From contig CBDUXL010000001.1 in assembly GCA_965371155.1 (NCBI GenBank), positions 1 to 52,096 on the forward strand: a stretch of DNA of 52,096 nt. The letters are read 5' to 3'. The notes beneath the pieces are model-generated. The model was not told the DNA's origin. It saw only the letters and a list, made by a program, of their open reading frames with translations, and did not search any database. Made by a program: the position numbers and the translations under genes. Of this stretch, positions 8,093 through 44,306 are shown one piece after another. How positions within the stretch are numbered: the first letter of the stretch is position 1; the number at the start of each line of letters is the position of its first letter. The DNA comes from an uncultured bacterium. Lineage in GTDB: Bacteria; JAJVIF01; JAPKYR01.

Positions 8093-8169
8093 TTGGATCG
8101 CCTGTCTGGTTTGATCGGACAATTCGGTCAGCAGCCCGTCAAGTCAGTGCGACGCATACGCTTCGTCTA

Positions 8170-11488: not shown

Positions 11489-11595
11489 CTCCTACCCTCC
11501 GGTTAAATCCCTATTCATTTTTATTGTCCAAGAATATAGCGCACTTTGTGTCGATACTACCACCCTATAGCTGCTTTTTCGGACAAAATGCCTGA

Positions 11596-13734: not shown

Positions 13735-13761
13735 TAGGAAATTTCCCTTACCACGATTGCA

Positions 13762-17818: not shown

Positions 17819-18802
17819 GTGACCAAAGCTGCAATGCTTGACAATCGCCGCAAGAAACAGGTTGCCGCAAGATTAAGTCTGGCTGCCGTTGCCCTGGTCC
17901 TCTTGCTTGCGGAATTCTTCCTGCTCTTGCACATGAGAAGCTACATGCCCTGCGGTATCGGACCTGCATTGAAGTACGAGTCGCTTCCGCCGGAGCTTGA
18001 ATTCCCGGTTGAGAGTGATCGGACCGGTTTCATCAGAAGTGATTTGGACACATTGGCACTAAAAGTCGGAGAAGAGCTGGAATACTTGGATCCAAGCGTT
18101 TTTCAGACTGATCTCATCATGGCAAGCGCTATCAGGGACTGGACGCGCCGGAAAGCCGGCGGGATCGGGAAGGACATCGATTCACGCAATCCGTGCGAGG
18201 TCCTCGAAGCCATGGAAGCAGGCGCGAAAGCTCACTGCGAGCCATTTGCGATACTGTACATGGCTGCTATCGAAGGTTTCGGCATGCACGCTCGCGAGAT
18301 CGCCCTGTTTGCCGAGCCTGGCGACTTCCACAAGGCTCACTCCACGGTGGAAGTCTGGACCGACTCCGGCTGGGTCTTGCAGGATCCCACTTTCAATGCT
18401 GTCCCACTCAGCCCGGATGGTAGTCCCCTGGACGCCGCGGCTGTCCAGGCGGTTTATGCTGAAGGGGGGCAGGTCATCTGGGAACAGGATGTGAATGAAA
18501 CCGAGCCGAAAATGGAGGGTTATAACATTCCTCCCAGGGAGTTGTATCGCTACGTTTTCTACCGACTTCACAGGTATCCGGCCGATATTCCCCGACCGAA
18601 ACTGTGGCTTGCCCGTTTCATCGATCGTCTCACCGGGCGGGTGGAGTGCGTTCTGGTAACGCGGGAGGATTTTCCTATTGGAAATGCGGTCATGGTCGGA
18701 ACGGTGGACCGATTCCTGGTCTTTCCCGCGATCATCTTTTTCGTTGCTGTGTTGGTTCCGTGGCCGTCCAGGACAATCAGACCGGGTCATCATAACACGT
18801 AG
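17819..18802 (+). CDS. Membrane-anchored transglutaminase-like cysteine protease superfamily protein
   Basis: There are N- and C-terminal hydrophobic helices. A Cys-His-Asp core is present: KAHCEPFAILYMA, HSTVEVW, LQDPTF. The start could be the GTG at 17819 or the ATG at 17834. Confidence 0.7.
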   Translation: MTKAAMLDNRRKKQVAARLSLAAVALVLLLAEFFLLLHMRSYMPCGIGPALKYESLPPELEFPVESDRTGFIRSDLDTLALKVGEELEYLDPSVFQTDLIMASAIRDWTRRKAGGIGKDIDSRNPCEVLEAMEAGAKAHCEPFAILYMAAIEGFGMHAREIALFAEPGDFHKAHSTVEVWTDSGWVLQDPTFNAVPLSPDGSPLDAAAVQAVYAEGGQVIWEQDVNETEPKMEGYNIPPRELYRYVFYRLHRYPADIPRPKLWLARFIDRLTGRVECVLVTREDFPIGNAVMVGTVDRFLVFPAIIFFVAVLVPWPSRTIRPGHHNT

Positions 18803-20525
18803 CCTGGGAATGCACTTCCCAGGAATCCGAACCGCGCGCGTCAGCAAGCGGACCTGTAGCGTGGGAACCCGTGCTATCGCTATTCATGACAGAATCAGGG
18901 ACGCGGTAGTGTATTTCGATTTCGCGGTCCTCAGGGAAAAGGGTCACCCTGTCAACCCAACTCTGGACGTATTCCTTCCGCTCCTCGGGTTTGGCGTGTT
19001 TCAGGACCCGATCAAGGTCCTTGCGGACGGCCATGGCCTTGTCTGAGTCAACCTGAGGGGGTTTGTCAGGGACGGTGCGGGCCTTGACCAACTCTTCCCT
19101 TTCAACCCTCAGTTCACGTAGCTGGCTGTTTGCCCACACCACATCATCCAGGCCGTTCACAAGTAGGGTGCGGATGTGGGTGATCTTCTTGTCGATCTCT
19201 GCAATGTGCCTCTCGGCGTCAGGGTCATAGCCCGTCTGCCGCTCCCAGATACGCCTCAACTCCTCGTTGACTTTGCGTGTGAACCTGTCAGGATCAGACA
19301 GCTTACTGATGATGCCCTTGATATCCTTGATGATCTCTGACTCCAGCAAGAGCTGGGGGACGTAAACTCCTGGACCACATCCCTTGCCACCACGGTAGGG
19401 TTCACTGCCGCAAACATAGTATTTCTTATGACCTACCAGGTTCTTTCCGCATCTATCGCAGACAGAAACTCCACCTGTCAGCAGGAAGTGTGATTTCCTG
19501 CTTCGACCGCGAGGGGGGCCCGGGTAGGTCTCACGTATTCCGCGCCGCACATTCGCAATGGCGATGGCTTCCTCCTCGGTGATGATTGCGGGGTGTGCGT
19601 CCTCGACAATCTCCCACTCGGAGACCGGCTTACGCCTGGCGCTCGGACCTCGTACATTCCAGACGCCATAGCCCGCGTACTTGAGTAGGTTGAAGTCATA
19701 GAGAAGGTCCTTCCAGCTCGTTGAGTTCCAGTACTTGTCACGCCTTGATGGAATGCCCTGCTCGTTGCAGAAGTCGCGAAGCTTTGCGACAGACGCGCCC
19801 TTCATCGCATGCTCAACCAGGCAGTGCCTGACCCATTCCCATTTTGGCTTTCCCGCTACAATCGTTTCATCCTTGACCCAGATGCTCTTGATTATGGGTT
19901 TCCCACCTTTAGCTGTGCCGTAATTAACGTGCTGTATTTTGAATCCCCAGAGAGGCATGGCACCATTCTTGAAGCAGTAGCCACTCTTAGGGTCACGGGT
20001 CCTTAGATTCGCTCTACACCCTTTCTTAGTGTGGAATGCCAGGGTCCGGCTGTAAGCTTCGTTCTTAGCGAATGTGAATGCTTCTGCGAATACTCCCGCT
20101 TCTGTTTCCGGGTCGATGTCCGGGTCAGATACGGACAGCACTTTGATGTCTTCAGAGCGGAGGTCTCGGAATAAAGCCCTACCCCCCAGGCTGTCTCTGG
20201 AGAATCGGGAAAAGTCATGCACGATTATGGCGTTGATGTCAGGATCAGCCCTCGCCAACCCGACCATCTTCTCGAATTCAGGTCGTTTACCATTTCTGCT
20301 GAAAGCGCTAGCAGCTTCACTGAACTCCCGGACTATCTCGACCCCGCGACGCTCAGCGAAGGTCCGTATCTCACGAAGCTGCTGCTCGATAGAATTACCA
20401 CGCCTCTCCTGCTCCTCGGTGGAGACCCGTGCCCATGCGAAGGCCTTGACCTTCTGAGCGCAATGGTCTTCCTCACCTCCTGATGTTCCGGTCATCGTTT
20501 CCACTAGGGTTTGGATGTCAGTCAT
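18777..20525 (-). CDS. Large serine recombinase (integrase)
   Basis: The N-terminal resolvase domain has the catalytic-Ser motif (AWARVSTEEQ). It is followed by a recombinase domain, a zinc ribbon (CDRCGKNLVGHKKYYVCGS) and a coiled-coil region. Length is 582 aa. Confidence 0.9.
   Translation of the reverse strand: MTDIQTLVETMTGTSGGEEDHCAQKVKAFAWARVSTEEQERRGNSIEQQLREIRTFAERRGVEIVREFSEAASAFSRNGKRPEFEKMVGLARADPDINAIIVHDFSRFSRDSLGGRALFRDLRSEDIKVLSVSDPDIDPETEAGVFAEAFTFAKNEAYSRTLAFHTKKGCRANLRTRDPKSGYCFKNGAMPLWGFKIQHVNYGTAKGGKPIIKSIWVKDETIVAGKPKWEWVRHCLVEHAMKGASVAKLRDFCNEQGIPSRRDKYWNSTSWKDLLYDFNLLKYAGYGVWNVRGPSARRKPVSEWEIVEDAHPAIITEEEAIAIANVRRGIRETYPGPPRGRSRKSHFLLTGGVSVCDRCGKNLVGHKKYYVCGSEPYRGGKGCGPGVYVPQLLLESEIIKDIKGIISKLSDPDRFTRKVNEELRRIWERQTGYDPDAERHIAEIDKKITHIRTLLVNGLDDVVWANSQLRELRVEREELVKARTVPDKPPQVDSDKAMAVRKDLDRVLKHAKPEERKEYVQSWVDRVTLFPEDREIEIHYRVPDSVMNSDSTGSHATGPLADARGSDSWEVHSQATCYDDPV
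18803..18823. terminator. Perfect 8-bp inverted repeat at the convergent gene junction (bidirectional terminator-like, or part of the element junction)
   Basis: cctgggaa-tgcac-ttcccagg lies immediately after the 18802 stop and inside the last codons of the recombinase ORF. Confidence 0.4.
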
Positions 20526-23853: not shown

Positions 23854-26229
23854 TTAAGGATTTGCTCTTCCGATGACCTCCTGATCGTTCTGTGAAGATG
23901 GTATTCTATCGCGCATCTCTCGGATACGCGAGACTATGTCTTGTGCAACCTCCGTGATCTCAGCGGGAGCTTTCACATCCTCTCCCATGTCGAGTTTCAA
24001 CCCCACAATTAGCGGTTCCAGGATGTCAGCACTCGGCGAGTTGAAAAGAACGTTCAGTGATTCGCGACCACAACCACAGGCAGCTAACCAAACGAATGTA
24101 TCGATTATGTCGGCTACACTCTTAGCTGCGAATTCGGTGCGCTCAAGGAATATACGCATCGGCTCCAAGGCTTCTTCGCGGCACTCATCAAACCTCGTGA
24201 GCAAGATGATCATTAGACGTCTATATGGGGCAATGATCTCGGAATTAAGCTCTATCGCTCTACGATAGGCTTGCTCGGCTTCCGTAGGCTGGCCCAAGCA
24301 TTGGTCATGCAATTGACCCAATAGTTCCCAAGCAGGTAGAAACTCTTCTTCAAGCTCTATGACCTTTCGGTACGCGTCTTCGGCCTCATCAAATCGCTGG
24401 AGATGCTCGTGGCATAGAAGGCCCAACTGCAGCCACAGCCCAGGGTTCCCGGGCTCAAGCGCTATGGCCTTCTTGTAGGCGCCCTTCGCCTCCCAAAAAC
24501 GCTTCAACTGGTAGTGGAAGAGCTCACCTAGTTGCAGCCACCCTAACGAGACGTCGGGCAGCAGCTCCGTCACCTTGCGAAAAGCCTCTTCGGCTTCCGC
24601 ATGGCGCTCAGGGAATCTCCTCAGTAGCTCTCCGAGCATGCCCCATGGCTTCGCGTAGTCCGGGGCCAGCTCAATCGACTTCCTGTACGAGTCCTCAGCT
24701 TTACCGTACTTGCTGAGTTCACAGTACGCCATGCCAAGGTTCACCCGTGCCAACGGATGATCCGGGGCTTTCTTGATGGCTTCTTTGAATATCACTACGG
24801 CTTTCGCAAAATCCCCCAGCTGATACATCAAGGCGTTGCCGTACTTCACCAAGTCCTGGAAGTCTGACTCAGGGCCCGCGACAACAAGCTTGGGCAAGGT
24901 CATCTCCTCTATGATGTCAGGGAGGTCAGGAAGATCGAGGAATTCTCCAGGCGTTTCCTCAAGAAGCTTGCTACGAAGGAAGTCGCATGGTGTTTTGAGC
25001 AGTTCTTCGTAAGCGGAGAAGTGGTCCTTGCGCGATTCTGGATCCAGCTTGCAGGCTTCACCGGTGATGAGCTGGACGGTCTGCCGCTCGCCATAGGCGA
25101 TGACCATGAAATTGACCAAAGCCTTCACTCGGCTCGACGACGTCCCCCGCCTGCGCATCAGGTAGTAGATGTTGTACATGCGCTCAGTGACTTGGTACCA
25201 CTTCTTGCGCGCCCGCTCACTCACGACTTCGACCAACCCCCGATCCACAAGCTGGGCCAAGTATGAACTTGTTGTGCTCGTGTTGTATCGCGTGATGCGG
25301 GCGACCTCGCGCGCAGTTGCCGGTTCCCAGATCTCCGCCAAGGCATGGTACACCTTCCCCTCTGTGAGGCTGAGGCTGTCGAGGATGTTCTTGAAGTAGC
25401 CGGTGTGATCATCCACCAGCTGCATGAGGTCTTCCATCAACCCCTTCAGCGACTTCTCATCTCCAAACCTCGAGATGATCGCAAGAAGCCTCGGATTACC
25501 CCCCGTCAGAATCCTGATGGCTTTGACTCGGCCTTCATCAGGCTCACTGCCGGTAACAGAGGTCCATACCCTTTCACATTCCTCGTTGGTCAAGGGGCCT
25601 AGCTTGCGAATCTGGAAGAATCCGTGCAGGCTCTTTCCCGGGTCTTTGATCTCGTCGAACTCACTCGTTGCAGTGGCGAGCAGCGTGATTCCTCGCTCGG
25701 TGGCGAGCGTTCCACGAATAGTCCGTGCCCCTTCCGGTCTTATCTGCTTCTCCACTAGCCTGTTGAAATTCTCGACTACCAGAAGAAGCCGCTTGCCCTC
25801 TGATTTCACAAAGCTCAGAAGCTCTGTAAGAGCACTCTGGCCCAGCCGTTCCTCATCCAGCTCATCGATCAGTTGTTCACGGACCTGCGACAATCTTTCG
25901 TTCTTGACCTCATGGCTCAAGTGAGCCAACACTTCCAGCCAGAATTCACCCGGGGTGCCAACATGGTTGATCTCTTCTGACAGCACGAGCGGATACCATA
26001 TCTCATTCAGCTCAGGACTATGCCTAAGCTCTGCGGCCACTCTAAGCGCCAGCATAGTCTTGCCAGCACCTCTAAGGCCAACGAGCAACATGTGCCTGTC
26101 CGGATCAGTGGAGCCTCCCCTGATGCCATTCATCACCCAGTCGAAGTCGGCCTGCCTGGCAACGAAGGAGCCGATAAGTTCATCGTCCGACAGGAAAGAG
26201 GGGTTGTACTTGACTAGTTTCGTCGTCAT
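23854..26229 (-). CDS. ORC/Cdc6-like or STAND-type P-loop ATPase with a winged helix and a C-terminal TPR array
   Basis: Walker A is LVGLRGAGKTMLAL and Walker B is RLLLVVENF. The wHTH is TAREVARITRYNTSTTSSYLAQLVDRGLVEVV. About 7 TPR-like repeats follow (A...Y.KAIEL.P). I recognised no effector domain. Confidence 0.75.
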   Translation of the reverse strand: MTTKLVKYNPSFLSDDELIGSFVARQADFDWVMNGIRGGSTDPDRHMLLVGLRGAGKTMLALRVAAELRHSPELNEIWYPLVLSEEINHVGTPGEFWLEVLAHLSHEVKNERLSQVREQLIDELDEERLGQSALTELLSFVKSEGKRLLLVVENFNRLVEKQIRPEGARTIRGTLATERGITLLATATSEFDEIKDPGKSLHGFFQIRKLGPLTNEECERVWTSVTGSEPDEGRVKAIRILTGGNPRLLAIISRFGDEKSLKGLMEDLMQLVDDHTGYFKNILDSLSLTEGKVYHALAEIWEPATAREVARITRYNTSTTSSYLAQLVDRGLVEVVSERARKKWYQVTERMYNIYYLMRRRGTSSSRVKALVNFMVIAYGERQTVQLITGEACKLDPESRKDHFSAYEELLKTPCDFLRSKLLEETPGEFLDLPDLPDIIEEMTLPKLVVAGPESDFQDLVKYGNALMYQLGDFAKAVVIFKEAIKKAPDHPLARVNLGMAYCELSKYGKAEDSYRKSIELAPDYAKPWGMLGELLRRFPERHAEAEEAFRKVTELLPDVSLGWLQLGELFHYQLKRFWEAKGAYKKAIALEPGNPGLWLQLGLLCHEHLQRFDEAEDAYRKVIELEEEFLPAWELLGQLHDQCLGQPTEAEQAYRRAIELNSEIIAPYRRLMIILLTRFDECREEALEPMRIFLERTEFAAKSVADIIDTFVWLAACGCGRESLNVLFNSPSADILEPLIVGLKLDMGEDVKAPAEITEVAQDIVSRIREMRDRIPSSQNDQEVIGRANP

Positions 26230-26583: not shown

Positions 26584-26744
26584 TTCCTTTGCATGGGTAG
26601 GAGGCAAGGTCAAACACATCGTTAGGCATAGGCACTTCGGGGTCCCTGCGAGTCTCCATGAAGGGAATCTCTCGCAGGTGCAAACGGCCAAAGGTAAGAT
26701 CCGGTTGATTGGGCATCCGATCAGCAAACGAGGTGGACACAGTA

Positions 26745-27374
26745 ATGGATAGCAACACAGATGACATTGAGTATGCCAAGCTCGAGAAGGAAGCGAAGGA
26801 ATTACTGCAAAGGGTTTCTGAAATTGTTGATGAGCTAGAATGTGCAACATCCAGCGGCGGAAACCTTGCGGCAAAGGAAGAGCAATTAAAGGCTGTCTCA
26901 AAGTCGATTAATACCCTCGAGCGGAAGAATGTAGCAGTGCCTGATAGCCTTAGAGACATGAAAACCAGTCTCTTCTCAGAGATTAGTTTTTCTAATGAGG
27001 TTAAATCAAATCTAGCAAACATAGGCACTGTGCTTGCTTCGATTCTGCAGAGAATCGAAAAGACCCAACCGCGAAGAAAAAGGGGCACAAGAAAGCGCAG
27101 TTACAGCTCGGGCCAGCCTTCTACTCACCATTCCACATACAGACCATTGATCATAAGGGCATTGCAGGAAAAAGGTGGTCAAGCTTCAAAGCATGAAGTC
27201 ATGGAGTGGATCGAAAAGGAGCTTGAAGGCAAATTTCAGCCAGGGGATCTGGAGCTGCGGAGCCGTGGAATACCAACGTGGATTATACGCGTTCAAAATG
27301 AACGATCGTCAATGGTAAGAGATGGAATTATCAAGAAAGATACGCCACAGGGAACTTGGGAGTTAAACGAATAG
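26745..27374 (+). CDS. Coiled-coil protein with a C-terminal Mrr_N-like winged-helix domain
   Basis: The ATG at 26745 follows a GAGGTGG RBS. The C-terminus (LIIRALQEKGGQASKHEVMEWIEKEL...IPTWIIRVQNERSSMVRDGII...GTWELNE) fits the wHTH pattern found at the N-terminus of Mrr-type restriction proteins. Confidence 0.6.
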   Translation: MDSNTDDIEYAKLEKEAKELLQRVSEIVDELECATSSGGNLAAKEEQLKAVSKSINTLERKNVAVPDSLRDMKTSLFSEISFSNEVKSNLANIGTVLASILQRIEKTQPRRKRGTRKRSYSSGQPSTHHSTYRPLIIRALQEKGGQASKHEVMEWIEKELEGKFQPGDLELRSRGIPTWIIRVQNERSSMVRDGIIKKDTPQGTWELNE

Positions 27375-27416: not shown

Positions 27417-27440
27417 GCATGCTCTTCGCCGAGCATGTTT
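27417..27440 (+). terminator. Hairpin plus short T-run after the wHTH gene
   Basis: gCATGCTC-ttcgcc-GAGCATG followed by ttt. The stem uses the same CATGCTC/GAGCATG arms as the 2025-2137 array. Confidence 0.4.
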
Positions 27441-27474
27441 GTGACTCGTCAATCAGACGGCAATGGCGAGTCAC

Positions 27475-27503
27475 TTGCGCCCTGTCATGCCGGCCGCTAC
27501 AAT
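27475..27503 (+). promoter_or_regulatory. Sigma70-like promoter candidate for the seven-gene operon
   Basis: -35 TTGCGC at 27475-27480, a 17-nt spacer, then -10 TACAAT at 27498-27503. It lies about 125 nt upstream of the ATG at 27627. Confidence 0.4.
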
Positions 27504-27626
27504 ATCCATCGGAGGACCGGTCGTGCAGTGGCGTCAATCACATCTGAATTCAGCGCCCCAGTCATCTCGGACCGGGGGCCACTCGCTTCAAGAGATCTTG
27601 ACTGTTCCACCAAGAAGAATGGCGGA

Positions 27627-29750
27627 ATGAAGATGACTCTGAGAGAACTTCCACTAAAGAAAGCCTACATGTCAGACGTGGATGATGTCCTTGCGGATTT
27701 CTTCATTCCAGCTCTTGAAGTGTCGACACAATACAATCGCCTAGCCGCCTTTTTCTCATCCTCAAGCCTGGCAGTTGCTGCAATGGGAATTCTGGGACTG
27801 ATTCGCAATGGTGGCAGCATGAGACTTGTCGTTTGCCCTCGGTTTTCACGAGCGGATGCACAAACGATTCTCGTGGCCAAGGATAATCCTGAAGTATATC
27901 TGACTCGGTATATGTTGTCCGAGCTTGAAGAGCTGCAAGAGGGCTTTGTAAAGGACCACGTCTCAGCTCTAGGGTGGATGGTGGCAAACGATCAATTGGA
28001 GATCCGCGTGTGCATTCCGCGTAACGAACCCAGACGGCTTGACGATTTCAGGAACGTTGATAGTTGGGGGATTTTCCACCCCAAAGTGGGTATCCTTCAG
28101 GATAGTGAAGAGAATTGTGTGACCTTCAGCGGCTCGATCAATGAATCCGCCTCCGGATGGATGCATAACAGCGAGGAATTCAAGGTGTTCCGAAGCTGGG
28201 AGCCCGTCGAGAAGGAGTATCAGCAGTCTGACTTATCGAATTTCGACAGGTTCTGGAACGGTACTTCTCCAACAATGAAGACAATGAGTATTCCCGAAGC
28301 CGTCCAGGAGCGACTGGTTCAGCTTGCACCCAACGACATTGAGAATCTCGCCTTGGAACGCTGGACTCAAAGGCGGTCCAAGGCTCGGAGAAGACAGGTG
28401 ACGCTCTTTGATTATCAGAATGAAGCCGTTCAAGCGTGGCTAGCCAATGAGATGAGAGGAATCTTCGAGATGGCCACTGGTACGGGAAAGACGTTCACCG
28501 CCCTGGGATGCATTGAAGAAGCCTTTGCCAGCGGCGTAGATGGGGCGATCATAGCAACGCCCTTTCAACACCTTTCGCAGCAGTGGATTCGTGAAATAGA
28601 GAAATTCGGTATCGACCACGGTGACATTGTCGTGGCAGACTCCAGCCGCCCACGCTGGAAGGACCGACTTGCCGATTCGCTGATCGATCTGAGCTTGGGC
28701 CACAAGCACAGGTTGCTCGTTCTGACCACACACGCTTCCCTGTCACTGGCCGATTTCCGTGATATCGTTGCAGAGAATCGGGGCAAGTCTCGATTGCTAC
28801 TCATAGCGGATGAGGTCCATGGTCTCGGGGCTAAAGAATCTCGGCAACGACTCAGCGAAGAGTATAATGCCCGTCTCGGACTTAGCGCGACTCCCCATAG
28901 GTGGTTCGATGATGTCGGCACAGCGGCGCTCATGGAATACTTCGGTGGTGTGGTCTATGAGTTCCCTCTCGAACGTGCGATAAACACTGTAAATCCAGCA
29001 ACTGGAACCACATTCCTAACCCCTTACAGGTATGAACTGCGATTTGCATCACTGTCGCAGGATGAAATAGCTGAATACTTGCAGAAGACACAAGCACTAA
29101 TCTATGCCAGAGGTAAGAGTGAATCGAAGTTAGACGAAGATGATTGGTTTGAAAGGCTGCTTTATGCGCGTGCTGACATTGTGAAGAACGCACAGGCGAA
29201 GTACGCTATTCTAGGCAAGATAGTCGACGACCTTGGGAAGGACATTAGGTGGACCCTTGTGTACTGCAGTCCCCAACAAATAGACACTGTCGTTGGACTC
29301 CTGAACGACCGGTCCCTTTCTCTGCACCGCTTCACAATGGAAGAAGGTACAACCCCGAGCAAGAATTACCAAGGTCGAAGCGAGCGCGAGCACATCCTGG
29401 ATAGATTCGCTGAAGGTGAATACCAGACCCTAGTAGCCATGAAGTGTCTTGATGAAGGTGTGGATGTCCCGGCTGCAAGGACAGCCGTTCTGATGTGCAG
29501 TAGCAGCAATCCTCGGGAATACATCCAGCGCATCGGCCGCGTGATTCGACGCTTTCAAAGCAAGACAGTGGCGATGATATACGATATAGTGGTGGCTCCT
29601 TCAATTGAGATGCTACCAGCAGACCTGAGAGAAGTTGAGCGTCGGATCTTTGAAAAGGAAATGACTCGGTGCAAGGAAATAGCTAGAACTGCCGAGAACA
29701 TCTCTGAGGCATTGATCGCCTTGGATGATATCATGAACCGGGTTTTGTGA
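27627..29750 (+). CDS. PLD-family (single HKD) nuclease domain fused to an SF2 (type III restriction res-like) helicase
   Basis: The HKD-like motif is FHPKVGILQDSEENCVTFSGSINES. Helicase motifs are ATGTGKTF (I), LLIADEVHGL (II), LSATP (III) and QRIGRVIR (VI). The ATG at 27627 follows GGCGGA. The 64 upstream codons of the long ORF look non-coding. Confidence 0.8.
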   Translation: MKMTLRELPLKKAYMSDVDDVLADFFIPALEVSTQYNRLAAFFSSSSLAVAAMGILGLIRNGGSMRLVVCPRFSRADAQTILVAKDNPEVYLTRYMLSELEELQEGFVKDHVSALGWMVANDQLEIRVCIPRNEPRRLDDFRNVDSWGIFHPKVGILQDSEENCVTFSGSINESASGWMHNSEEFKVFRSWEPVEKEYQQSDLSNFDRFWNGTSPTMKTMSIPEAVQERLVQLAPNDIENLALERWTQRRSKARRRQVTLFDYQNEAVQAWLANEMRGIFEMATGTGKTFTALGCIEEAFASGVDGAIIATPFQHLSQQWIREIEKFGIDHGDIVVADSSRPRWKDRLADSLIDLSLGHKHRLLVLTTHASLSLADFRDIVAENRGKSRLLLIADEVHGLGAKESRQRLSEEYNARLGLSATPHRWFDDVGTAALMEYFGGVVYEFPLERAINTVNPATGTTFLTPYRYELRFASLSQDEIAEYLQKTQALIYARGKSESKLDEDDWFERLLYARADIVKNAQAKYAILGKIVDDLGKDIRWTLVYCSPQQIDTVVGLLNDRSLSLHRFTMEEGTTPSKNYQGRSEREHILDRFAEGEYQTLVAMKCLDEGVDVPAARTAVLMCSSSNPREYIQRIGRVIRRFQSKTVAMIYDIVVAPSIEMLPADLREVERRIFEKEMTRCKEIARTAENISEALIALDDIMNRVL

Positions 29751-29760
29751 GGAGGGATTT

Positions 29761-29961
29761 ATGTCAGAAGCTAGAATAAACCGCCAGATAATCGATGCGA
29801 TACGCGAGTCTACATCGGACGATCCTCTTATTCAGGAATTTCTTCTGGGTCTTCTTAACATAGAAGCCGAGCACAGCGGTCATTGGCGATGGAAGAAGCC
29901 ATATCAAGACAAGCTGAAGCAGTTCACCAACAGGAGCAAAGACACCGATGAGAATCAGTAG
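29761..29961 (+). CDS. Small (66 aa) operon protein of unknown function
   Basis: A strong GAGGAGGG RBS lies just upstream of the ATG. It starts 10 nt after the helicase stop and overlaps the next gene by 14 nt. Confidence 0.6.
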   Translation: MSEARINRQIIDAIRESTSDDPLIQEFLLGLLNIEAEHSGHWRWKKPYQDKLKQFTNRSKDTDENQ

Positions 29962-31930
29962 AATCGAGCTGCGAAACTACCGTCAGTTCAAACACGCTGT
30001 ACTCTTATTTACGAAAAAGAGCGGAACTGACCTGCATATTTTCATCGGAAGAAATACTGCTGGTAAAACGAACATATTAAATGCCATTAATTGGTGCCTC
30101 TACGAGGATGAACCTCATGTTACTGCACAATACCAAGGCCTGGAGATTCCTAATTTGTTAGCAGTTGATGAGATAGCTGATGAAGGAGAGATTCCTGTAG
30201 TTGTTGAAATCACAGTTGAAAGTGATGACAGGGATTCCCACGTCTTCCGGCGGGAGCAGGTCTTCCGAATTCATGGTCGCCAGAAACCGACATTGCAGCG
30301 AACTGAGTTCCAAGCTAGATTTCAAGGTGATGATGGTAACACAGTCATTCTAAAGGATGATGACGCAACTGAGTATGTGCAGCGTTTTGTACCCAATAAC
30401 ATACGGGAGTACTTCTTCTTCGACGGTGAAAGATTAGATAATTACTTCAAAGAGGAAGCAGGCCAGAAGATTAGGCATGCAGTATTTCAGATTGCACAGA
30501 TCGACCTTTTAGCACGAGTGAATTGTCACCTGGCGGATTTGGTGCACGACCTTGAAAAACAAGCTGCTCGAATCAGTCCTGCTTTAGAAGGTATTAGGAC
30601 CCGTCTTGAGAAGGCCAAGGAAGAAGAGGCTGACTGTAATATTAGATTTGCAGAATGCGAAAAACAGCTGCTTGCAGCAGAAGACGGAACAGTAAAATAC
30701 ACACAGAAGATTTCTGGCCTGCCTGCTGTCGAGAGTCTGGAAGCCGAACGCAAGCAGCTTGGTTCACAAGTCGAGGGACTCCAGAAGATGTTACGCGATA
30801 AGGAGGATGAGAAGGGCGAAGTGTTGTTTAAATTTGGTGTAAGACTGAATATACATGAAGCCCTAAGAAATGCAATTGCTGTGATTGATGATAAGACAAA
30901 AGCCCGTGAAATACCGCCAGCTATAAAAACCGAGATTCTTGAAGATGCATTGGCTAATGGAAGGTGTATTGTTTGCGGAACAGAACTTACCGATGTAAGC
31001 AGGATATGTGTTCAAGAACTGCTTCGGGAAGTTAGCTTATCATCTGAAGTTGCACATGAACTGCATCGAATCGAGGGCCCTTTACGGATGATGGTTGATG
31101 AAACAATGCAATTCGACAAGGGGATTCGCAAAGTCACCCGTGAAATGGAAACAATTAAGAATCAGATTGACAGCCTCCAGCAACGTCGAGAAGAGATTGA
31201 CAGCGACCTTGCGGGTTACGATGTCGAAGAGGTCCGCCATTGGCAAGCTATGCGCAAGGAGTTTGAACAGACGGCAAGGAGCCTAAGGGAGAATCGTGGT
31301 GTACTGAAGGACGCCCAGAACCGAAAAACCAAGGAAGTTGAAGAGTTACAAAAGAAACTTCACACAGAACTTAAAGCAGAGCAAGCGGCTGGTGAATTGC
31401 AATTGCAGATAGAGGTATGCTCAAGTGCACGGGCAGCTGCATACAGAGCTGAACAAGCAGTAATGACAAAAACCCGATCCTTCATCGAACAGAAAACATC
31501 TGAGACCTTCATGGAGCTAGTATGGCGAAAGTCCACGTATGAGGATGTGACAATCGAGGAGAATTACCACATCAGCGTCCACCACTCAATGGGTTACGAC
31601 GCACTGGGAACTTTGAGTGCTGCAGAAAGAGAACTACTTGCCCTATCATTCACATTGGCACTTCACGAAGTGTCAGGCTTCGAAGGACCGTTGCTGATCG
31701 ATACTCCTGTAGCAAGAGTTTCTGACAGTCACCGCGAAAACTTCGCACAAGCTTTGCTTCGCGTAGCAAAAAGAGGGAAGCAGATTATACTTCTGTTCAC
31801 ACCAGACGAATACACCAGCACTGTGAGCAAGCACCTTGAGAACGATGCTGCTTCACGACATGAGATCCGGCTACAGCAAAACGAACGGGAAAGCAAAGTG
31901 GAGGATCTTACCAATGGCGAACGTACCTGA
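29948..31930 (+). CDS. DndD/SspC-like SMC-type ABC ATPase
   Basis: Walker A is IGRNTAGKTNILNAINWCLY. Other motifs: YFFFDGERLDNYF, long coiled coils with a CxxC hook (GRCIVCGTEL), the signature LSAAERELLALSF, and Walker B plus tail LLIDTPVARVSDSHRENF. Confidence 0.8.
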   Translation: MRISRIELRNYRQFKHAVLLFTKKSGTDLHIFIGRNTAGKTNILNAINWCLYEDEPHVTAQYQGLEIPNLLAVDEIADEGEIPVVVEITVESDDRDSHVFRREQVFRIHGRQKPTLQRTEFQARFQGDDGNTVILKDDDATEYVQRFVPNNIREYFFFDGERLDNYFKEEAGQKIRHAVFQIAQIDLLARVNCHLADLVHDLEKQAARISPALEGIRTRLEKAKEEEADCNIRFAECEKQLLAAEDGTVKYTQKISGLPAVESLEAERKQLGSQVEGLQKMLRDKEDEKGEVLFKFGVRLNIHEALRNAIAVIDDKTKAREIPPAIKTEILEDALANGRCIVCGTELTDVSRICVQELLREVSLSSEVAHELHRIEGPLRMMVDETMQFDKGIRKVTREMETIKNQIDSLQQRREEIDSDLAGYDVEEVRHWQAMRKEFEQTARSLRENRGVLKDAQNRKTKEVEELQKKLHTELKAEQAAGELQLQIEVCSSARAAAYRAEQAVMTKTRSFIEQKTSETFMELVWRKSTYEDVTIEENYHISVHHSMGYDALGTLSAAERELLALSFTLALHEVSGFEGPLLIDTPVARVSDSHRENFAQALLRVAKRGKQIILLFTPDEYTSTVSKHLENDAASRHEIRLQQNERESKVEDLTNGERT

Positions 31931-32378
31931 CAGGCTCTATGTTGGCAAGGGCGACATTGAGCTCTACAACAAGCTTCAGCAGGAGTGGATACTTCGAGGG
32001 AAGTCGCGAAAGGAGCAATTCATGCTTGCACTGGCATTTGGCTTCAAGAACGGAGTATCAGACGAAATTGACCAACCAAAGGAGTTTTTCAGACGGGAGT
32101 ATCTGCGGACTGAAGATGAAGCTTTGCTCTATGCAGTTGCTATCAAAGCCAAGGGCGAGTTGGACTTACTCAGTGACTTAGAAGCAGTATTCAAGATAGC
32201 CCAGGAGTATGCACACGCAGGCATTCGTCTTCTTGCTGACGAGATTGCCGGTACTTCCTTTGGCAGCTTCGAGAAAAAGTTCGAAAAAAGCCTTTTCGAG
32301 ATCTTTGAGGAATTGACGAAGTCCAGCGACACTGAGACCGCCCCCAGCGACCCATCAGGCGCAAGCTCCGGCAGTTGA
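31914..32378 (+). CDS. Small helical protein in the DndE position (weak DndE-like pattern)
   Basis: The ATG at 31914 follows a GTGGAGGA RBS and overlaps the upstream gene by 17 nt. The helical pattern ending in YAHAGIRLL resembles my recollection of the DndE family end. The C-terminal tail is acidic and Ser-rich. Confidence 0.4.
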   Translation: MANVPDRLYVGKGDIELYNKLQQEWILRGKSRKEQFMLALAFGFKNGVSDEIDQPKEFFRREYLRTEDEALLYAVAIKAKGELDLLSDLEAVFKIAQEYAHAGIRLLADEIAGTSFGSFEKKFEKSLFEIFEELTKSSDTETAPSDPSGASSGS

Positions 32379-32447
32379 TCGAGCCTGGAAAGGGCTTGCA
32401 GCATTCAGAGTTGACAAAGGAGGAAAAGTGCAGTAAATTTCTGCAAA

Positions 32448-33452
32448 ATGCAGGATAATACTGCAATAATTGAACTTTGCGGGATTGTCGGCAAGTGCGG
32501 AAGTCTTGATGTTTTTCTCGGTTTTGCTCCCGCTAGACTTCTGCATTCTATCTCCCTCGTGGACGTTCTGAACGAAGACACAGGGAAAGGCTACCAGCGT
32601 CCCCGTAATCGGCGGCACAGTCTGGACTTCAAGCAGTACATCTCCCGTCAAGACAGTTCCACCATTCCATTGACTTTCAACCTTCGTTCTGAGTTGTCCG
32701 ACGCATGGGAAATCAGAATTGAAGGTGATGGGCATGCAACGCTCCGCATTTGTCCATCAGTGAAGTGCTTGGCCCAGGTTGACTGTCAACACCGTCTAGG
32801 TGAGCTACACGATTCGGATATACCGCTGGCTTTCATGACATTTATCAGCCTAGACCTCCGAGCAGAAATGGGGTTATTTGTAATCATCAACAGCAAGGCC
32901 AAAGGTCTGAGTTCTTCCCTTACGGACTTTCATGAAAGCAATTTGCTCAATGACCTTGCCGCCGAGTCTCCGCATCTATATATAGCTCGCAAACTAAACG
33001 AAGACCCGCAGTCTCCCTGGTTCAGATTAATTCGATATGGTGGAGAAACTACCGCTGGGCTAAAAAGGCGGACGTCTTTTCGCATGATGCAGAAAACCAT
33101 AGCTAAGCTGCTCAATCAAATTAAGTCGCTGGACATTGGGAGCGTCGAGGATAAGTACGCTTTAGTTGTTTCCTTCTGGCGTGCCGTAGCTACTGTTTTC
33201 AGTGATGAATGGCAAGATCACCGACATAACCTCCTGACAAAGGGAGTGGGGCTTTATTCGCTCACTCTCTTACTGGCTGACTTTGTGCGAGGTGCTGGAA
33301 CAGCTTCATTGGACGATCAGTTCTTCATCCAGCAACTTAAACCCTTGAAGGAGAGAATTGATTGGAACACCAAGGGCATGTTCGCTGATGCTGGTGGTCA
33401 AAAGGGTGCAGTTGAAGTCTATCAAAAGATTAAGGAGTTCGCTAAGGCATGA
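32448..33452 (+). CDS. DGQHR-domain (DndB-like, ParB/Srx fold) protein
   Basis: The motif VDCQHRLGEL is a DGQHR variant. It is preceded by GKGYQRPRNRRHSLDFKQYI and followed by FVIINSKAKGLSSSL. The start codon is moderately supported. Confidence 0.7.
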   Translation: MQDNTAIIELCGIVGKCGSLDVFLGFAPARLLHSISLVDVLNEDTGKGYQRPRNRRHSLDFKQYISRQDSSTIPLTFNLRSELSDAWEIRIEGDGHATLRICPSVKCLAQVDCQHRLGELHDSDIPLAFMTFISLDLRAEMGLFVIINSKAKGLSSSLTDFHESNLLNDLAAESPHLYIARKLNEDPQSPWFRLIRYGGETTAGLKRRTSFRMMQKTIAKLLNQIKSLDIGSVEDKYALVVSFWRAVATVFSDEWQDHRHNLLTKGVGLYSLTLLLADFVRGAGTASLDDQFFIQQLKPLKERIDWNTKGMFADAGGQKGAVEVYQKIKEFAKA

Positions 33453-35020
33453 GGGTCTTGATGGTAGAACCTCAGTATCGAAGGCTGCGTCCAGAAAAGA
33501 GAAACGCACCTAACTCAAAACTGGATGACAGCACTCTCTGGTACCCTCCGCTTGGCCTCCTGAAATTATCAAGGTTCCACAAGGACCGTGGGGACGAAGT
33601 TCGATTCGTCAGCGGTTGCGACCCTAACGTTTTTCATTGCCAGGATCTCTTCAACCCAGCTGATTTGTGGGACCGCGTTTATATAACCACGCTTTTTACC
33701 TATCACTTTGACCGCATAGTCAAGACAATCAAGTTCTATCTAGAGGCAGTCGGCGGTACTGTAGGTAAGATTTTCGTTGGTGGAGCCATGGCATCCTTAA
33801 TGCCGGACGCGGTTTTTGAGGAAACAGCGGTCTATCCTATTCTTGGCGTGCTTAACTCGCCTGAGCCACTTCGCCTTTCGGGCAACACAAATATCGACAT
33901 GCTGCCACTCGACTACGAGCTACTCGACCCGACGCTCTACGCAATCAATGACACTTTCTATGCCTACACGACCAGGGGTTGTACGAACCATTGTCCCTGG
34001 TGCGGCGTTCCCAGACTGGAGCCTGAGTATATCCCCTACATCGACATAAAGCCCATGATACTGGAAATGAGAGACCTGTACGGGGACAAGGCTAACTTGA
34101 AGCTGATGGACAACAACGTCCTGGTCAGTCCAGAGCTCCCGCGGATTGTGGACGACCTTCTGGAACTTGGCTACGGTCGAGGACAGCACACTGAGACTCA
34201 CTCTAAGAAACAACGCGTGGTCGATTTCAACCAGGGACTTGATGTAAGTCCCTTGAATAAGAAGACGATGCGTTTGCTCGCAAAACTCAATATCCGCCCT
34301 GTGAGGATAGCCTTTGACAGACTACGTGAAAAGGATGAATACGTGCGTGCTCTGGAACTTGCTAATAGACACGGGGTAAATGAGTTCTCGAACTACATGC
34401 TGTACAACTTCAATGACACACCGCGTGACTTGTATGAGCGGCTTTGTGTGAACATCCACCTGAATGAAAAATGGCTGGAAGACATGCCCGATCGCATGGC
34501 TGGAAAAATCTACAGCTATCCCATGCGATATGCACCGATCGATGATGATTCAGGAAGCGGTGCCAGCAGACGGCGAGACCACTTGACCATGGAGACTGCA
34601 GGCCAACGAGACTGGCTGCTCAGACCGTTGTGGACGCGCCGCTTCATACGAAATATCGAAATTATGAAAGGTGCAGCACATGGTGCGATCTCCCCAACTC
34701 CTACACTCGCCTGGCGAACCATAGGCGCAACATTCGAAGAGTTCCTTGTAAATCTCTACATGCCCGAAGAGCTTCTACGCAATCGCAATGAGCACGAGCG
34801 TCGCGTCTACGAGGATGAACCGAAGCGAAAACCTGGCACGGGGAAGGTGGAGGAATTCAGGAGATTTGTGCTCACCTTACTCGAGGGGGGCGGTGAGAGA
34901 TTTTGCCAGTTCCACAATGCAGTTAGCGCTAACTCCACCCAAGTTGTCAAGGCTTCTTTGCAGGAGATCAAAGATCCTGAGATCAGGAGATGGTTGAAAT
35001 GGTACCTCAAGCGAAGATGA
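33449..35020 (+). CDS. Radical SAM enzyme with an N-terminal Rossmann/B12-binding-like region
   Basis: The CX3CX2C motif is in YTTRGCTNHCPWCGVP. The N-terminal WYPPLGLLKLSRFHKDRGDEVRFV resembles class B radical SAM N-domains. There is an ATGA overlap with the DGQHR stop. Confidence 0.8.
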   Translation: MRVLMVEPQYRRLRPEKRNAPNSKLDDSTLWYPPLGLLKLSRFHKDRGDEVRFVSGCDPNVFHCQDLFNPADLWDRVYITTLFTYHFDRIVKTIKFYLEAVGGTVGKIFVGGAMASLMPDAVFEETAVYPILGVLNSPEPLRLSGNTNIDMLPLDYELLDPTLYAINDTFYAYTTRGCTNHCPWCGVPRLEPEYIPYIDIKPMILEMRDLYGDKANLKLMDNNVLVSPELPRIVDDLLELGYGRGQHTETHSKKQRVVDFNQGLDVSPLNKKTMRLLAKLNIRPVRIAFDRLREKDEYVRALELANRHGVNEFSNYMLYNFNDTPRDLYERLCVNIHLNEKWLEDMPDRMAGKIYSYPMRYAPIDDDSGSGASRRRDHLTMETAGQRDWLLRPLWTRRFIRNIEIMKGAAHGAISPTPTLAWRTIGATFEEFLVNLYMPEELLRNRNEHERRVYEDEPKRKPGTGKVEEFRRFVLTLLEGGGERFCQFHNAVSANSTQVVKASLQEIKDPEIRRWLKWYLKRR

Positions 35021-36585
35021 ACAGCAAACCCACCTGCATTCAAATAGGCCCGAAGATCATCGAAGTCCTCACAACGGGAATGTACAGCAATCCTCTCATG
35101 GTGATTCGGGAGTATGTGCAGAACTCCGTTGACGCCATAGACCTTGCCACTGAACAGGGGACTATAGACCACGAAGATAGCATCATTGACATCCATTTGA
35201 ACGGTGGGAATCGATGCATTTCAGTCAAGGACAATGGGATTGGTGTTCCTAACGACGAGGTTGAGCAGGTTCTGTGCGCACTGGGTTGCAGCAAGAAGAA
35301 CCTAGGTTGCCACAGAGGCTTTCGAGGCATAGGCCGACTGGGGGGAGTTGGATACTGCGACGTTGTCCAGTTCGAGACTCGAAGTCACCCCAGGGAACAA
35401 GTGGCCATCATTGAATGGGACGGCAGGAAGCTCAGGAAACGCCTACAATCTGGGAGAAAGACTGCCAAGGCCGCCGTACGGGAGTGTGTACGAATCGGCT
35501 ATCGACCGGCAGAAAAGAGAGAAGGTGGCCACTTCTTCCAAGTGCGCCTTATGGGGGTCCGACGTTTTCACAAGGATGAGCTCATGAACGTCGGGGTTAT
35601 TACGTCCTACCTCGGTCAGGTTGCCCCCGTTGCTTTCGACAAAGCTCGATTCAGTTTTGCCAAGGAAGTTGAGGAGCATCTTCGAGAAGTCGATGGGTTC
35701 GCATGCTATCGAATCCGGGTGAATAGTCAGCAAGTGTACCGACCTCACGCGGATACTTTTGAGGTCACGGCAAATCGCCACGGCAGGATTCACGGTATCG
35801 AGCTCCTTGATATAACAAGAACTGACGGAAGGTCCTTAGGACGCGGTTGGTATGCCAAGACCGAGTACTTGGCCTCGATCCCGCCCCGGATCGGCATGCG
35901 CGGTGTGAGAATACGCCAAGGAAACATCGAAATCGGTGACGAGTACTTCCTTGCTAACACCTATGCAGAGCGCAGGTTCGCGACTTGGCACATTGGGGAG
36001 ATACATCTGGGATACACCTTGATAGCTAATGCTCGACGCGATGGGTTTGAGCAGTCTTCGGATTACGAGGCGTTTCTCGAGCAGGCGAGCATTCTCGGCG
36101 CTCACCTCAGCTACCTGTGTCGGAAGTCTTCGAAGAACCGGAGCGGGATTGCTGCCGTCGAAAGTGCACTAGGCCGGCTGGAGGCCCTTGTGGGAAGTGA
36201 GCTCTACGTGGACGATCAACATTTGCATTGCGCAAAGGCCGAGGCGTCGAGGCTTTTGGGAATATTGGCAGAGTATGCTGACAAAGGATGGCTTCGTGCG
36301 GATTCCCTTCGAAAACTGTCAACACTCCAGAAAGCAACGGACCGATTGGACAGCAATGTAGAATTCCTGGCGGATGCGTTGGACGGCCGGAAGCTGCACC
36401 ACCGCTCTAAGCGAACCCTACTGGAGGCCGTGGCCAGAGCGGTAGCTGAAAGCCAGGACGGAGATGTAGTTACAGACGCCTTGCTGTTGCGAATCTTTGG
36501 CCCGTACCTGAAGCCGAAGCAATTGGGAAACAAAAGGAACCCGAAAGCAAAAGTGAGGAACCAACCGAAGAGAAGGAAAGGTTAA
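35017..36585 (+). CDS. GHKL (HATPase_c_3, MORC/MutL-like) ATPase
   Basis: Bergerat-fold motifs: IREYVQNSVDA (N box), VKDNGIGV (G1) and GFRGIGRLGGVGY (G2). I prefer the ATG at 35017, which overlaps the radical SAM stop (ATGA). The C-terminal tail is basic. Confidence 0.8.
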   Translation: MNSKPTCIQIGPKIIEVLTTGMYSNPLMVIREYVQNSVDAIDLATEQGTIDHEDSIIDIHLNGGNRCISVKDNGIGVPNDEVEQVLCALGCSKKNLGCHRGFRGIGRLGGVGYCDVVQFETRSHPREQVAIIEWDGRKLRKRLQSGRKTAKAAVRECVRIGYRPAEKREGGHFFQVRLMGVRRFHKDELMNVGVITSYLGQVAPVAFDKARFSFAKEVEEHLREVDGFACYRIRVNSQQVYRPHADTFEVTANRHGRIHGIELLDITRTDGRSLGRGWYAKTEYLASIPPRIGMRGVRIRQGNIEIGDEYFLANTYAERRFATWHIGEIHLGYTLIANARRDGFEQSSDYEAFLEQASILGAHLSYLCRKSSKNRSGIAAVESALGRLEALVGSELYVDDQHLHCAKAEASRLLGILAEYADKGWLRADSLRKLSTLQKATDRLDSNVEFLADALDGRKLHHRSKRTLLEAVARAVAESQDGDVVTDALLLRIFGPYLKPKQLGNKRNPKAKVRNQPKRRKG

Positions 36586-36989: not shown

Positions 36990-37143
36990 GCGAGAAATGC
37001 CCGTTATTCTGCATTGTCTCGGGACTTGAGACCCTCTCCCCTTGAAGCCCAAAACTTGGATTTTCACCCTCTACAACCCCCACCAAAAGCCCCAGTCCGG
37101 GTATCACTTTCTGTTATGCGTCTCACGGGCGGCTGGAGGGGCG
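36990..37143. repeat. Dispersed ~155-bp intergenic repeat, family B, copy 1
   Basis: It aligns end to end with 44152-44306 in the same orientation. Long identical blocks include ctccccttgaagcccaaaac and agccccagtccgggtatcactttctgttatgcg. Confidence 0.85.
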
Positions 37144-44151: not shown

Positions 44152-44306
44152 GCGGGAAATGCCCGCCATTCTGCATTGCTTTCGGGACTTGAGATGCTCT
44201 CCCCTTGAAGCCCAAAACTCGGGTTTTGCCCCTCGGCACACCGCACCACAAGCCCCAGTCCGGGTATCACTTTCTGTTATGCGTTTTTCGGGCGGTTGGA
44301 GGGGCG
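44152..44306. repeat. Dispersed ~155-bp intergenic repeat, family B, copy 2
   Basis: See copy 1 at 36990-37143. Confidence 0.85.

Follow-up and report, generated by a model that had tools for sequence, protein, structure and literature searches.

PbeABCD beside a mobile DGQHR-radical SAM-GHKL cassette: a candidate restriction-modification-like operon in an uncultured bacterium

Introduction

The closest described relatives of the locus treated here are the PbeABCD systems, which were first described by Xiong et al. 2019 (PMC6459918) and were later re-annotated by the Aravind group as a system anchored on a CxC-ABC ATPase and DndE (PMC10853773). In one tested Pbe case the antiviral activity depends on phosphorothioation by a neighbouring DndCDEA module, and what the activity needs is the phosphorothioate mark itself rather than contact with the Dnd proteins (PMC6459918). 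Among 553 pbeAC pairs, 320 were without dnd genes nearby, 165 of these 320 were also without a known modification gene nearby, and Xiong et al. proposed that Pbe pairs with other modifications (PMC6459918). We analyzed a 52,096-nt stretch of DNA from an uncultured bacterium (contig CBDUXL010000001.1, hereafter the window) in which four genes that correspond to PbeABCD are followed on the same strand by three genes for a DGQHR-domain protein, a radical SAM enzyme and a GHKL ATPase.

The described DndCDEA-PbeABCD arrangement (PMC6459918, PMC10853773) and the window operon have in common the four-gene order, the protein architectures and an adjoining, same-strand candidate modification module; the window operon differs in having no recognised dndC, dndD, dndE, dndA or cytosine methylase, and in having the DGQHR, radical SAM and Hsp90-like GHKL genes instead. 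That three-gene combination is mentioned in neither PMC6459918 nor PMC10853773, in which 'radical SAM' appears only with regard to DndC. We consider it about an even call that the locus is a composite operon resembling a restriction-modification (R-M) system, in which PbeABCD would be the restricting or excluding arm and the three downstream genes (the cassette) would be a radical-SAM-based self-marking arm. Since Pbe depends on a DNA mark, and the window holds no recognised DndA, DndC or methyltransferase, the cassette is a candidate for Pbe's modification partner. Judged by its position, the cassette appears to occupy the place that dndCDEA or a methyltransferase takes in other Pbe, DISARM-like and SNF2-based systems, and comparison of related loci found it to be a separate, conserved and mobile unit that is exchanged among partners.

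Results

Organization of the operon

The list of open reading frames (ORFs) places seven same-strand genes, overlapping or tightly spaced, across 27435-36585 (27435-29750, 29761-29961, 29948-31930, 31914-32378, 32448-33452, 33449-35020 and 34990/35017-36585). The original prediction, made from the sequence alone, had described seven co-directional genes, and all of its junctions are present in the ORF list: a 10-nt gap at 29750/29761 between genes 1 and 2, overlaps of 14 nt at 29948-29961 and 17 nt at 31914-31930, and ATGA overlaps at 33449-33452 (genes 5 and 6) and 35017-35020 (genes 6 and 7). The ATG of gene 4, at 31914, falls within an ORF that opens with TTG at 31836. The predicted operon start at 27475 had to be moved, as there is no in-frame start at that position; the longest ORF of gene 1 begins at 27435, and the probable start is the ATG at 27627 or 27633, since the alignments to homologues and to the PbeA profile begin no earlier than residue 64-69.

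The sole true intergenic gap is 69 nt long (32379-32447), by which the operon falls into a four-gene block and a three-gene block. At the same junction other Pbe-type loci have spacers of 70-170 nt, and the genes overlap inside each module. The spacer in the window contains a promoter-like site on the forward strand, TTGACA-17-TAAATT at 32411-32439, which is a consensus match only; by itself this sigma-70-like match is weak evidence, as the number of such sites in the region is not above that in shuffles.

Genes 1-4 as a PbeABCD module

By profile matches and gene order, genes 1-4 (27435-32378, forward strand) are identified as PbeABCD, alias the CxC-ABC ATPase/DndE system. Gene 1 (27435-29750) encodes PbeA, a single-HKD (PLD) nuclease joined to a superfamily 2 (SF2) helicase, with a PADLOC PbeA match of 5.5e-218 over residues 69-759. 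It also matches TIGR04095 dnd_restrict_1 (3.1e-117) at 392 bits, under the 600-bit cut-off, as well as the Pfam families ResIII, Helicase_C and, weakly, PLDc_2. The translation shows HPKVGILQD, ATGTGKT, DEVH and QRIGR, with one HKD motif (HxKx4D) and helicase motifs I, II, III and VI. Gene 3 (29948-31930) encodes PbeC, a coiled-coil ABC/SMC-like ATPase with a CxxC zinc hook that belongs to the 'CxC' clade, sister to DndD. Its PADLOC PbeC match is full length at 3.6e-144, the best DndD profile being far below it (3.1e-41), and the hook cysteines C340 and C343 are invariant across 6 homologues.

The two small genes correspond to PbeB and, probably, PbeD by position and weak sequence conservation. 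Gene 2 (29761-29961), placed like the small, fast-evolving PbeB between the genes for PbeA and PbeC, encodes a PbeB-like protein of 66 aa with no family match in Pfam, PADLOC or NCBIfam; an ORF of 57-66 aa stands at the PbeB position in five related loci (L115, L119, L121, L146 and L149), and most of these share the motif ..EFL..L..E....W.WK..Y. Gene 4 (31914-32378) encodes a PbeD-like small helical protein of 154 aa, PbeD being the reported DndE cognate. It suits PbeD in size and position, is kept in 7 Pbe-type loci at 34-43% identity and has a weak match (7e-4) to TIGR04062 dnd_assoc_4, while a search of its profile against PDB sequences gave no match to solved DndE structures.

The original prediction had called gene 3 DndD/SspC-like and the whole operon Dnd-derived. 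The second label is fair, and the first we rejected, since gene 3 scores 118.7 bits against the DndD equivalog TIGR03185, whose cut-off is 245.85, and matches the PbeC profile far more strongly. In general the seven domain assignments stood, profile and fold matches being in agreement with them. A Pfam scan of the seven operon proteins and 20 other large window ORFs, a few ORFs of 120-300 aa lying outside it, found no DndA (cysteine desulfurase), no DndC (PAPS-reductase-like) and no DNA methyltransferase, as had been predicted, and the dnd machinery (DndA, DndC, DndD and DndE proper) was not found in the scanned genes of the 52-kb window. The expectation that no named system has this gene set was right in part: genes 1-4 have a name already, whereas for the cassette of genes 5-7 no description was found.

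The DGQHR-domain protein

Gene 5 (32448-33452, forward strand) encodes a DGQHR-domain protein of the ParB/DndB/DpdB-like kind. It had been proposed that profiles would place gene 3 in the DndD and gene 5 in the DGQHR family; gene 3 falls outside, as described, but gene 5 lies well inside, with 132.8 bits against TIGR03187 (cut-off 58.85) and 31.7 against Pfam DndB (PF14072; cut-off 29.1). The closest PADLOC profile is DpdB (2.3e-22), and the match to the DpdB equivalog NF041060 (82 bits) is below the cut-off of 300. A sequence search against PDB found nothing useful. The motif reads DCQHR (G to C) at residues 112-116, which is family-specific and present in 94% of 35 unique cassette homologues; in the same set conservation reaches 90% or more at 92 positions.

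DpdB supplies the ATPase that works with the DNA transglycosylase DpdA. The Dpd 7-deazaguanine system (DpdA, DpdB, DpdC, DpdD-K, the last group being helicases/nucleases) resembles the cassette in having a DGQHR/ParB-fold gene directly upstream of the gene for a nucleic-acid-modifying enzyme, putative in the cassette, with which its product presumably acts; it differs in that the window has no recognised DpdA (tRNA-guanine transglycosylase), DpdC or preQ0 genes, and in the DCQHR motif of gene 5. In the window the DGQHR and radical SAM genes overlap by 4 nt, and P0242, a 791-aa metagenomic protein, is a natural fusion of a DGQHR-like domain and a radical SAM enzyme. The DGQHR part of P0242 matches the window protein at 4e-45 and 29% identity and is degenerate, its motif region being eroded.

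The radical SAM enzyme

Gene 6 (33449-35020, forward strand) encodes a radical SAM enzyme with the motif CTNHCPWC (C178-x3-C182-x2-C185). Its match to Pfam Radical_SAM (PF04055) is 27.2 bits, just under the cut-off of 29.5, and a radical SAM profile search against PDB sequences found nothing. The AlphaFold2 model (AF2; mean predicted local distance difference test, pLDDT, 87.7) matches radical SAM structures at probability 1.00 by Foldseek and consists of an N-terminal Rossmann domain, a radical SAM barrel and a helical C-terminal domain (residues ~330-523) that is conserved and basic. Best in the Foldseek list were AprD4 (3.8e-9) and MiaB/MtaB/RimO (~1e-7), with viperin further down. Gene 6 shares with AprD4 (6fd2) and MiaB/MtaB/RimO (7mjw, 4jc0) a flavodoxin/B12-like N-domain followed by the CX3CX2C barrel, and MiaB and MtaB act on nucleic acid (tRNA); identity to these structures is only 11-15%, with a TM-score of ~0.43. 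The methylthiotransferases differ further in their three N-domain auxiliary-cluster cysteines and TRAM domain, both absent from gene 6, which has its own, unique basic helical C-terminal domain instead. As C178, C182 and C185 are the only cysteines that are invariant or nearly so in 31 sequences, we take the gene 6 product to have no auxiliary cluster. Methylthiotransferase-type sulfur insertion, considered as an alternative route to phosphorothioate, was ruled out on the same ground, the auxiliary-cluster cysteines being absent.

The N-domain has the Rossmann fold of B12-binding domains, with an AerR match at Foldseek probability 0.98 over 149 columns, and residues 32-128 match Pfam B12-binding (PF02310) at 20.9 bits and 3.4e-4. 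This is below the cut-off of 32.1, and the dependence on B12 that the original prediction had raised for checking is not supported.

The radical SAM enzyme has 3,452 detectable homologues, the top 120 being 57-95% identical to it; an exact look-up of the window protein itself gave no record. Record titles place homologues in Syntrophales, Smithella, Desulfuromonas, Geobacter, Elusimicrobia, Fibrobacterota, Rectinemataceae, Armatimonadota, Bacteroidales, Phycisphaerae and one Asgard archaeon, lineages that are mostly anaerobic. Clustering at 50% reduces the orthologous clade to essentially one representative inside a wider family of 294 (E<=1e-30). One sequence, P0241, has a Lys-rich insert of ~110 aa after residue 20.

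The Hsp90-fold GHKL ATPase

Gene 7 (34990-36585, forward strand; the alternative start at 35017 yields the ATGA overlap) encodes a GHKL ATPase with an Hsp90 fold. It matches HATPase_c_3 at 8.3e-8 (32.8 bits, cut-off 25), PRK14083 'HSP90 family' at 9e-15 but far under the cut-off, and MutL models at 2.3e-5, again far below their cut-offs. All 50 of the 50 Foldseek matches listed for the AF2 model (pLDDT 85.3) are Hsp90/TRAP1/GRP94/HtpG chains, aligned over the N and middle domains, the best at 7.7e-16. The protein had been predicted to be GHKL/MORC-like, and the first half of that label held: the ATP-site residues E32, N36, D39, D72, G74, G76, G101, G104 and G106, the last three in the stretch G101-G106, are invariant in 35 sequences. 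MORC identity was set aside on the strength of the Hsp90-only list of fold matches, which included no direct comparison with a MORC structure. Gene 7 resembles Hsp90/HtpG/TRAP1 in its GHKL motifs and in a middle domain that, together with the N domain, superposes on those of Hsp90; it differs from the chaperones in its identity of 10-14% and in a variable helical region that replaces the C-terminal dimerisation domain, and from Hsp90, paraMORC and MutL-like proteins alike in reaching no curated family cut-off. The GHKL gene is always translationally coupled to the radical SAM gene.

Exchange of the cassette among unrelated partner modules

We compared related loci by a tblastn census and ORF clustering, having gathered 7 loci from genomes, 80 metagenomic loci, 80 viral contigs and several more by exact look-up (designated by L numbers here). 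In 83 of 100 loci the radical SAM gene has the GHKL gene as its direct neighbour, and a DGQHR/DndB-family protein is present in 60 of these. Among 88 non-redundant loci at least five unrelated helicase/nuclease modules adjoin the radical SAM-GHKL pair. Where enough flank was available, such a module was present in 17-18 of 20 non-redundant loci, namely the SNF2+ParB_N module in 9, Pbe in 4 and an REase-DndB-HEPN protein in 3-4.

The commonest partner (module A) consists of a ParB_N-like protein, a 136-aa protein, an SNF2 helicase (ZorD/DpdE-like) and a second ParB_N-like protein; its helicase is a further likeness to the Dpd system, as it resembles DpdE as well as ZorD. Module B is PbeABCD, found in the window, L115, L119, L121, L141, L145, L146 and L149, and inverted in L137. 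Module C is a single 766-aa protein with an endonuclease-like region and weak matches to DndB and a Swt1-type HEPN domain (e.g., L003, L133 and L174). Module E comprises a BrxD/SngB-like ATPase, a DrmC-like PLD protein, a HerA/mad8-like ATPase and two unknown proteins, one before and one after the latter (L118, L126, L127 and L129), and module F comprises DrmA (2.8e-161), DrmB (1e-52) and NERD-UvrD helicases, with a divergent radical SAM-GHKL pair coming after them (L015). No recognisable methyltransferase was found among the scanned genes of any partner module. Compared with DISARM (DrmA, DrmB, DrmC, DrmMI/MII), the divergent pair of L015 stands in the place of the methyltransferase and module E has a DrmC-like PLD protein, whereas the window has no Drm genes and these loci have no recognised methyltransferase.

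The seven-gene arrangement of the window, whose co-conservation had been set as a check in the original prediction, recurs in the same order in at least five further non-redundant metagenome loci, with partial versions in three more. In total Pbe adjoins the cassette in 8 non-redundant loci, in the same strand and order in at least 6 and inverted in L137, and PbeA is 34-60% identical to that of the window across these loci. Radical SAM proteins that are 94-95% identical adjoin Pbe in L119, module E in L126 and L129, and module C in L133. At the DNA level, L119 and L126 are 93.5% identical over 4,209 bp, a stretch reaching from 47 nt upstream of the DGQHR gene to ~60 nt beyond the GHKL gene, and have nothing else in common; L119 and L133 are 95% identical over the radical SAM-GHKL pair only. 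In a crude neighbour-joining tree the Pbe-linked radical SAM sequences are scattered over several separate positions. The DGQHR, radical SAM and GHKL genes are thus a separate, conserved and mobile cassette that is exchanged as a unit.

Several of these loci have features of their own. In L015 (IMGVR_UViG_2619619281_000003, 2963-13445) DrmA, DrmB and two NERD-UvrD helicases precede a 698-aa radical SAM protein, the GHKL protein and an Mrr_cat protein, and no methyltransferase was found with this DISARM-like core. L174 is from a cultured isolate, Desulfuromonas sp. KJ2020 (JAKUKE010000001.1, 951584-973149), where a phage-type integrase is encoded upstream of the cassette and the genes run HD protein, 773-aa DndB-fusion protein, radical SAM, GHKL. 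In L005/L013 (Ga0373620_0000278 / IMGVR_UViG_3300036760_001538) the contig is classed as viral, and its tail-fibre-like, NlpC/P60 and amidoligase genes are followed without interruption by the radical SAM-GHKL pair, here accompanied by an inverted SNF2/ParB_N module; this system may be carried by a prophage. In four loci (L003 13257-15745, L008 2502-4801, L096 13351-15485 and L134 7145-9441) the cassette is adjoined by a pair of genes for a DndB-family and a metallo-beta-lactamase-fold protein, which may be another small defence module.

Relatives of the radical SAM enzyme in phages

One phage replication cluster (L014, IMGVR_UViG_3300028561_000007, 7359-13792) encodes a full-length relative of the radical SAM enzyme (43% identity, E 2e-153), whose gene sits between those for a uracil-DNA glycosylase (UDG)/3'-5' exonuclease and DNA polymerase A and is followed immediately by a Dam-type methyltransferase. 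The cluster also encodes a primase-like Toprim protein, a DnaB-like helicase, a weak beta-clamp match, a clamp loader, a gp32-like single-stranded DNA-binding protein (SSB), a RecA-like protein and a 5'-3' exonuclease; neither a GHKL nor a DGQHR gene was found there. Relatives of the enzyme are encoded on more than 500 viral contigs, of which 80 were kept; almost all of these 80 belong to a family of ~300 aa (phrog_9298, E 1.2e-36 to the window protein) that has the N-domain and barrel of the window enzyme without its C-terminal domain. Examples are L020-L092 (L033, 9932-10939) and Bacteroides phage LoVEphage (MW660583.1, 37164-38081). In 19 of 73 loci examined, a PAPS-reductase/PP-loop gene lies at most two genes from the phage radical SAM gene, and DUF551, C5-methyltransferase, Dam-type and VRR-NUC-like genes also occur near it. 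These replisome and modification-gene contexts suggest that the enzyme acts on DNA or on DNA precursors, and the placement recalls, by analogy, the orphan methyltransferases that phages use against R-M systems.

Genomic setting of the operon

The GC content is 0.44-0.53 across the cluster and ~0.56 in the adjoining glycogen operon, and so lower in the cluster, as the original prediction had it. That prediction had also placed the operon in a defence island, which the neighbouring genes bear out: a serine recombinase (18777-20525, reverse strand), two STAND/TPR NTPases (23854-26229 and 49769-52084, both reverse strand) and an Avs2-like protein (45393-48476, forward strand; PADLOC Avs2 4.8e-30) that combines an Mrr_cat nuclease at its N terminus with a STAND NTPase. 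With the Avs2-like and STAND/TPR genes beside the serine recombinase, we regard the whole 18-52 kb stretch as a defence island. Just upstream of PbeA is an ORF (26709-27374, forward strand) whose C-terminal end resembles, by eye, a winged helix of the Mrr_N type and which had no PADLOC match.

An intergenic element of ~110 nt occurs twice in the window, at 37033-37141 and 44197-44304 on the forward strand, and the most closely related contig has a third copy shortly after its GHKL gene (L093, 3014-3122). Its core, CTCTCCCCTTGAAGCCCAAAACT, is identical in both window copies, the chance expectation being 0 matches, and its ends are partly complementary. Searched as a structured RNA, the element matched nothing in Rfam, and its fold had a z-score of -0.54. 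We regard it as a possible repeat resembling miniature inverted-repeat transposable elements (MITE) or repetitive extragenic palindromes (REP).

Discussion

If the locus is indeed a composite R-M-like operon, the radical SAM enzyme would use a 5'-deoxyadenosyl radical to place on host DNA a mark that is neither methyl nor phosphorothioate, the DGQHR protein would be its NTP-dependent, DNA-engaging partner by analogy with DpdB for DpdA, the GHKL dimer would be an ATP-driven clamp or assembly factor for the radical SAM enzyme, and PbeABCD would scan DNA and then block or cut what is unmarked. We infer DNA as the substrate, a self-mark as the product and these roles for the three cassette proteins. 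In all three families the catalytic sites are intact (CX3CX2C and the GHKL ATP-site motifs invariant, DCQHR 94% conserved), and the exchange of the cassette among partners fits an output that is read via DNA rather than through co-adapted protein contacts. The general idea of the original prediction, with the radical SAM enzyme as modification arm and the PLD-helicase as restriction arm, remains the best reading. Its proposal that DndD/E-like proteins recruit the radical SAM enzyme is not supported, as the radical SAM-GHKL pair also stands with four partner modules that have no PbeC or PbeD and is exchanged as a discrete cassette; a specific tie to the radical SAM enzyme is seen for the DGQHR protein only, in the conserved adjacency of their genes and in one natural fusion.

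We put forward more tentatively a stronger version, which we think possible although somewhat short of an even call, in which the cassette installs a radical-made mark that is not methylation, phosphorothioation or 7-deazaguanine and that is portable as a 'self' signal across at least five unrelated restriction-type modules, phages having captured the radical SAM gene by itself to mark their own DNA as a means of escape. There is a substantial chance that the chemistry of the cassette is categorically new.

Several points weigh against a self-marking cassette. The radical SAM and DGQHR proteins are ~60% identical across phyla and have no obvious variable target-recognition region, a uniformity unlike that of methyltransferases or Dnd systems, whose target specificities diverge. 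To our knowledge, radical SAM enzymes, which are oxygen-sensitive and typically slow, have no precedent as makers of a DNA mark across a whole genome, and we know of no modification system in which an Hsp90-like ATPase has a matching role. Individual cassette genes are also absent from some loci: the subgroup L160-L162 and L167-L169 has no GHKL gene, and some loci have no free-standing DGQHR gene, L149 among them although it has Pbe, while in the REase-DndB-HEPN loci the fused DndB domain may substitute for it. Loss of the modification is not toxic in the tested Pbe system, so that the logic is unlike that of classical R-M. Finally, the comparative evidence is metagenomic, and the genes in these loci were called by a crude ORF finder.

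The best-surviving alternative, which we consider unlikely on balance, is that the cassette is a sensor, effector or regulator rather than a self-marking device, with the partner nuclease/helicase modules as co-effectors. In one such version, foreign DNA or phage proteins would be sensed by the Hsp90-like ATPase and DGQHR protein, leaving the radical SAM enzyme to damage invading DNA by radical chemistry or to make a viperin-like, nucleotide-derived antiviral product or signal. The uniformity of the radical SAM and DGQHR proteins, with no variable specificity region, is what a universal small substrate would lead one to expect; AprD4, the best fold match, is a 1,2-diol dehydratase, and viperin occurs lower in the same list; ParB-superfamily proteins have been proposed as nucleotide-degrading effectors (PMC10853773); and one partner module has a HEPN RNase-like domain typical of abortive-infection effectors. 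However, the known antiviral radical SAM enzymes (prokaryotic viperins and Ophion) are uncoupled from helicase/nuclease modules, whereas this cassette joins modules that are mark-dependent elsewhere (Pbe, DrmAB) and that are here without a recognised methyltransferase, and the phages that carry the radical SAM gene alone, in a replisome cluster beside a DNA methyltransferase, fit protection better than a toxin. Ophion itself (radical SAM + PHP + PRTase) is a different system.

Still less probable is that PbeABCD and the cassette are two independent systems of the island, Pbe being an orphan or served by a modification encoded elsewhere. A 69-nt spacer with a promoter-like site parts the two blocks, the cassette moves separately from Pbe, PbeABCD is often 'solitary', defence islands gather unrelated systems (here the Avs2-like and STAND genes are nearby), and, as only the 52-kb window was seen, dnd genes may lie elsewhere in the genome. 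Yet Pbe and the cassette are adjacent in 8 non-redundant loci despite the divergence of PbeA, the cassette is almost never without a helicase/nuclease module, and the cassette alone has no recognisable nuclease or other effector. Least probable of all, and in our view quite improbable, is that the enzyme belongs to the class B (cobalamin-dependent) methylases and adds methyl groups to DNA at an unactivated carbon position in a variant of methylation-type R-M: the weak B12-binding match, the AerR-like N-domain fold and the mostly anaerobic hosts would suit it, but that match is below its cut-off, the match to TIGR04072 is negligible, the top folds are AprD4 and methylthiotransferases, with no solved cobalamin-dependent radical SAM methylase recognised among the 50 matches listed, the profile search of PDB sequences found nothing, and the similar N-domain of AprD4 reportedly does not bind cobalamin.

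We return to the composite operon, in which only the Pbe half has already been named; the cassette is apparently undescribed. No model specific to the radical SAM or the GHKL protein exists in PADLOC-DB 2.0 or NCBIfam 20 (June 2026), and database names for their homologues are "hypothetical protein", "radical SAM protein", "ATP-binding protein" and "HtpG". In the searchable full-text literature, a scope that excludes subscription-only papers and the CxC-defining 2020 paper (PMC7544218), we found no description of the cassette, and no searchable full-text paper has 'radical SAM', 'GHKL' and 'phage' together.

The cassette offers a concrete, testable partner for a subset of the 'solitary' Pbe systems, and Desulfuromonas sp. 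KJ2020, as a cultured carrier, is a possible experimental host. Being so conserved and mobile across many phyla, the cassette is a worthwhile target even if its enzyme does something else. If our reading is true, the locus would add a new class to the epigenetic marks of DNA and a new activity to the enzymes available for DNA chemistry, its radical SAM enzyme would be the first with a use in self/non-self discrimination, and the related orphan radical SAM gene in many phages, including human-gut Bacteroides phages, would be accounted for.

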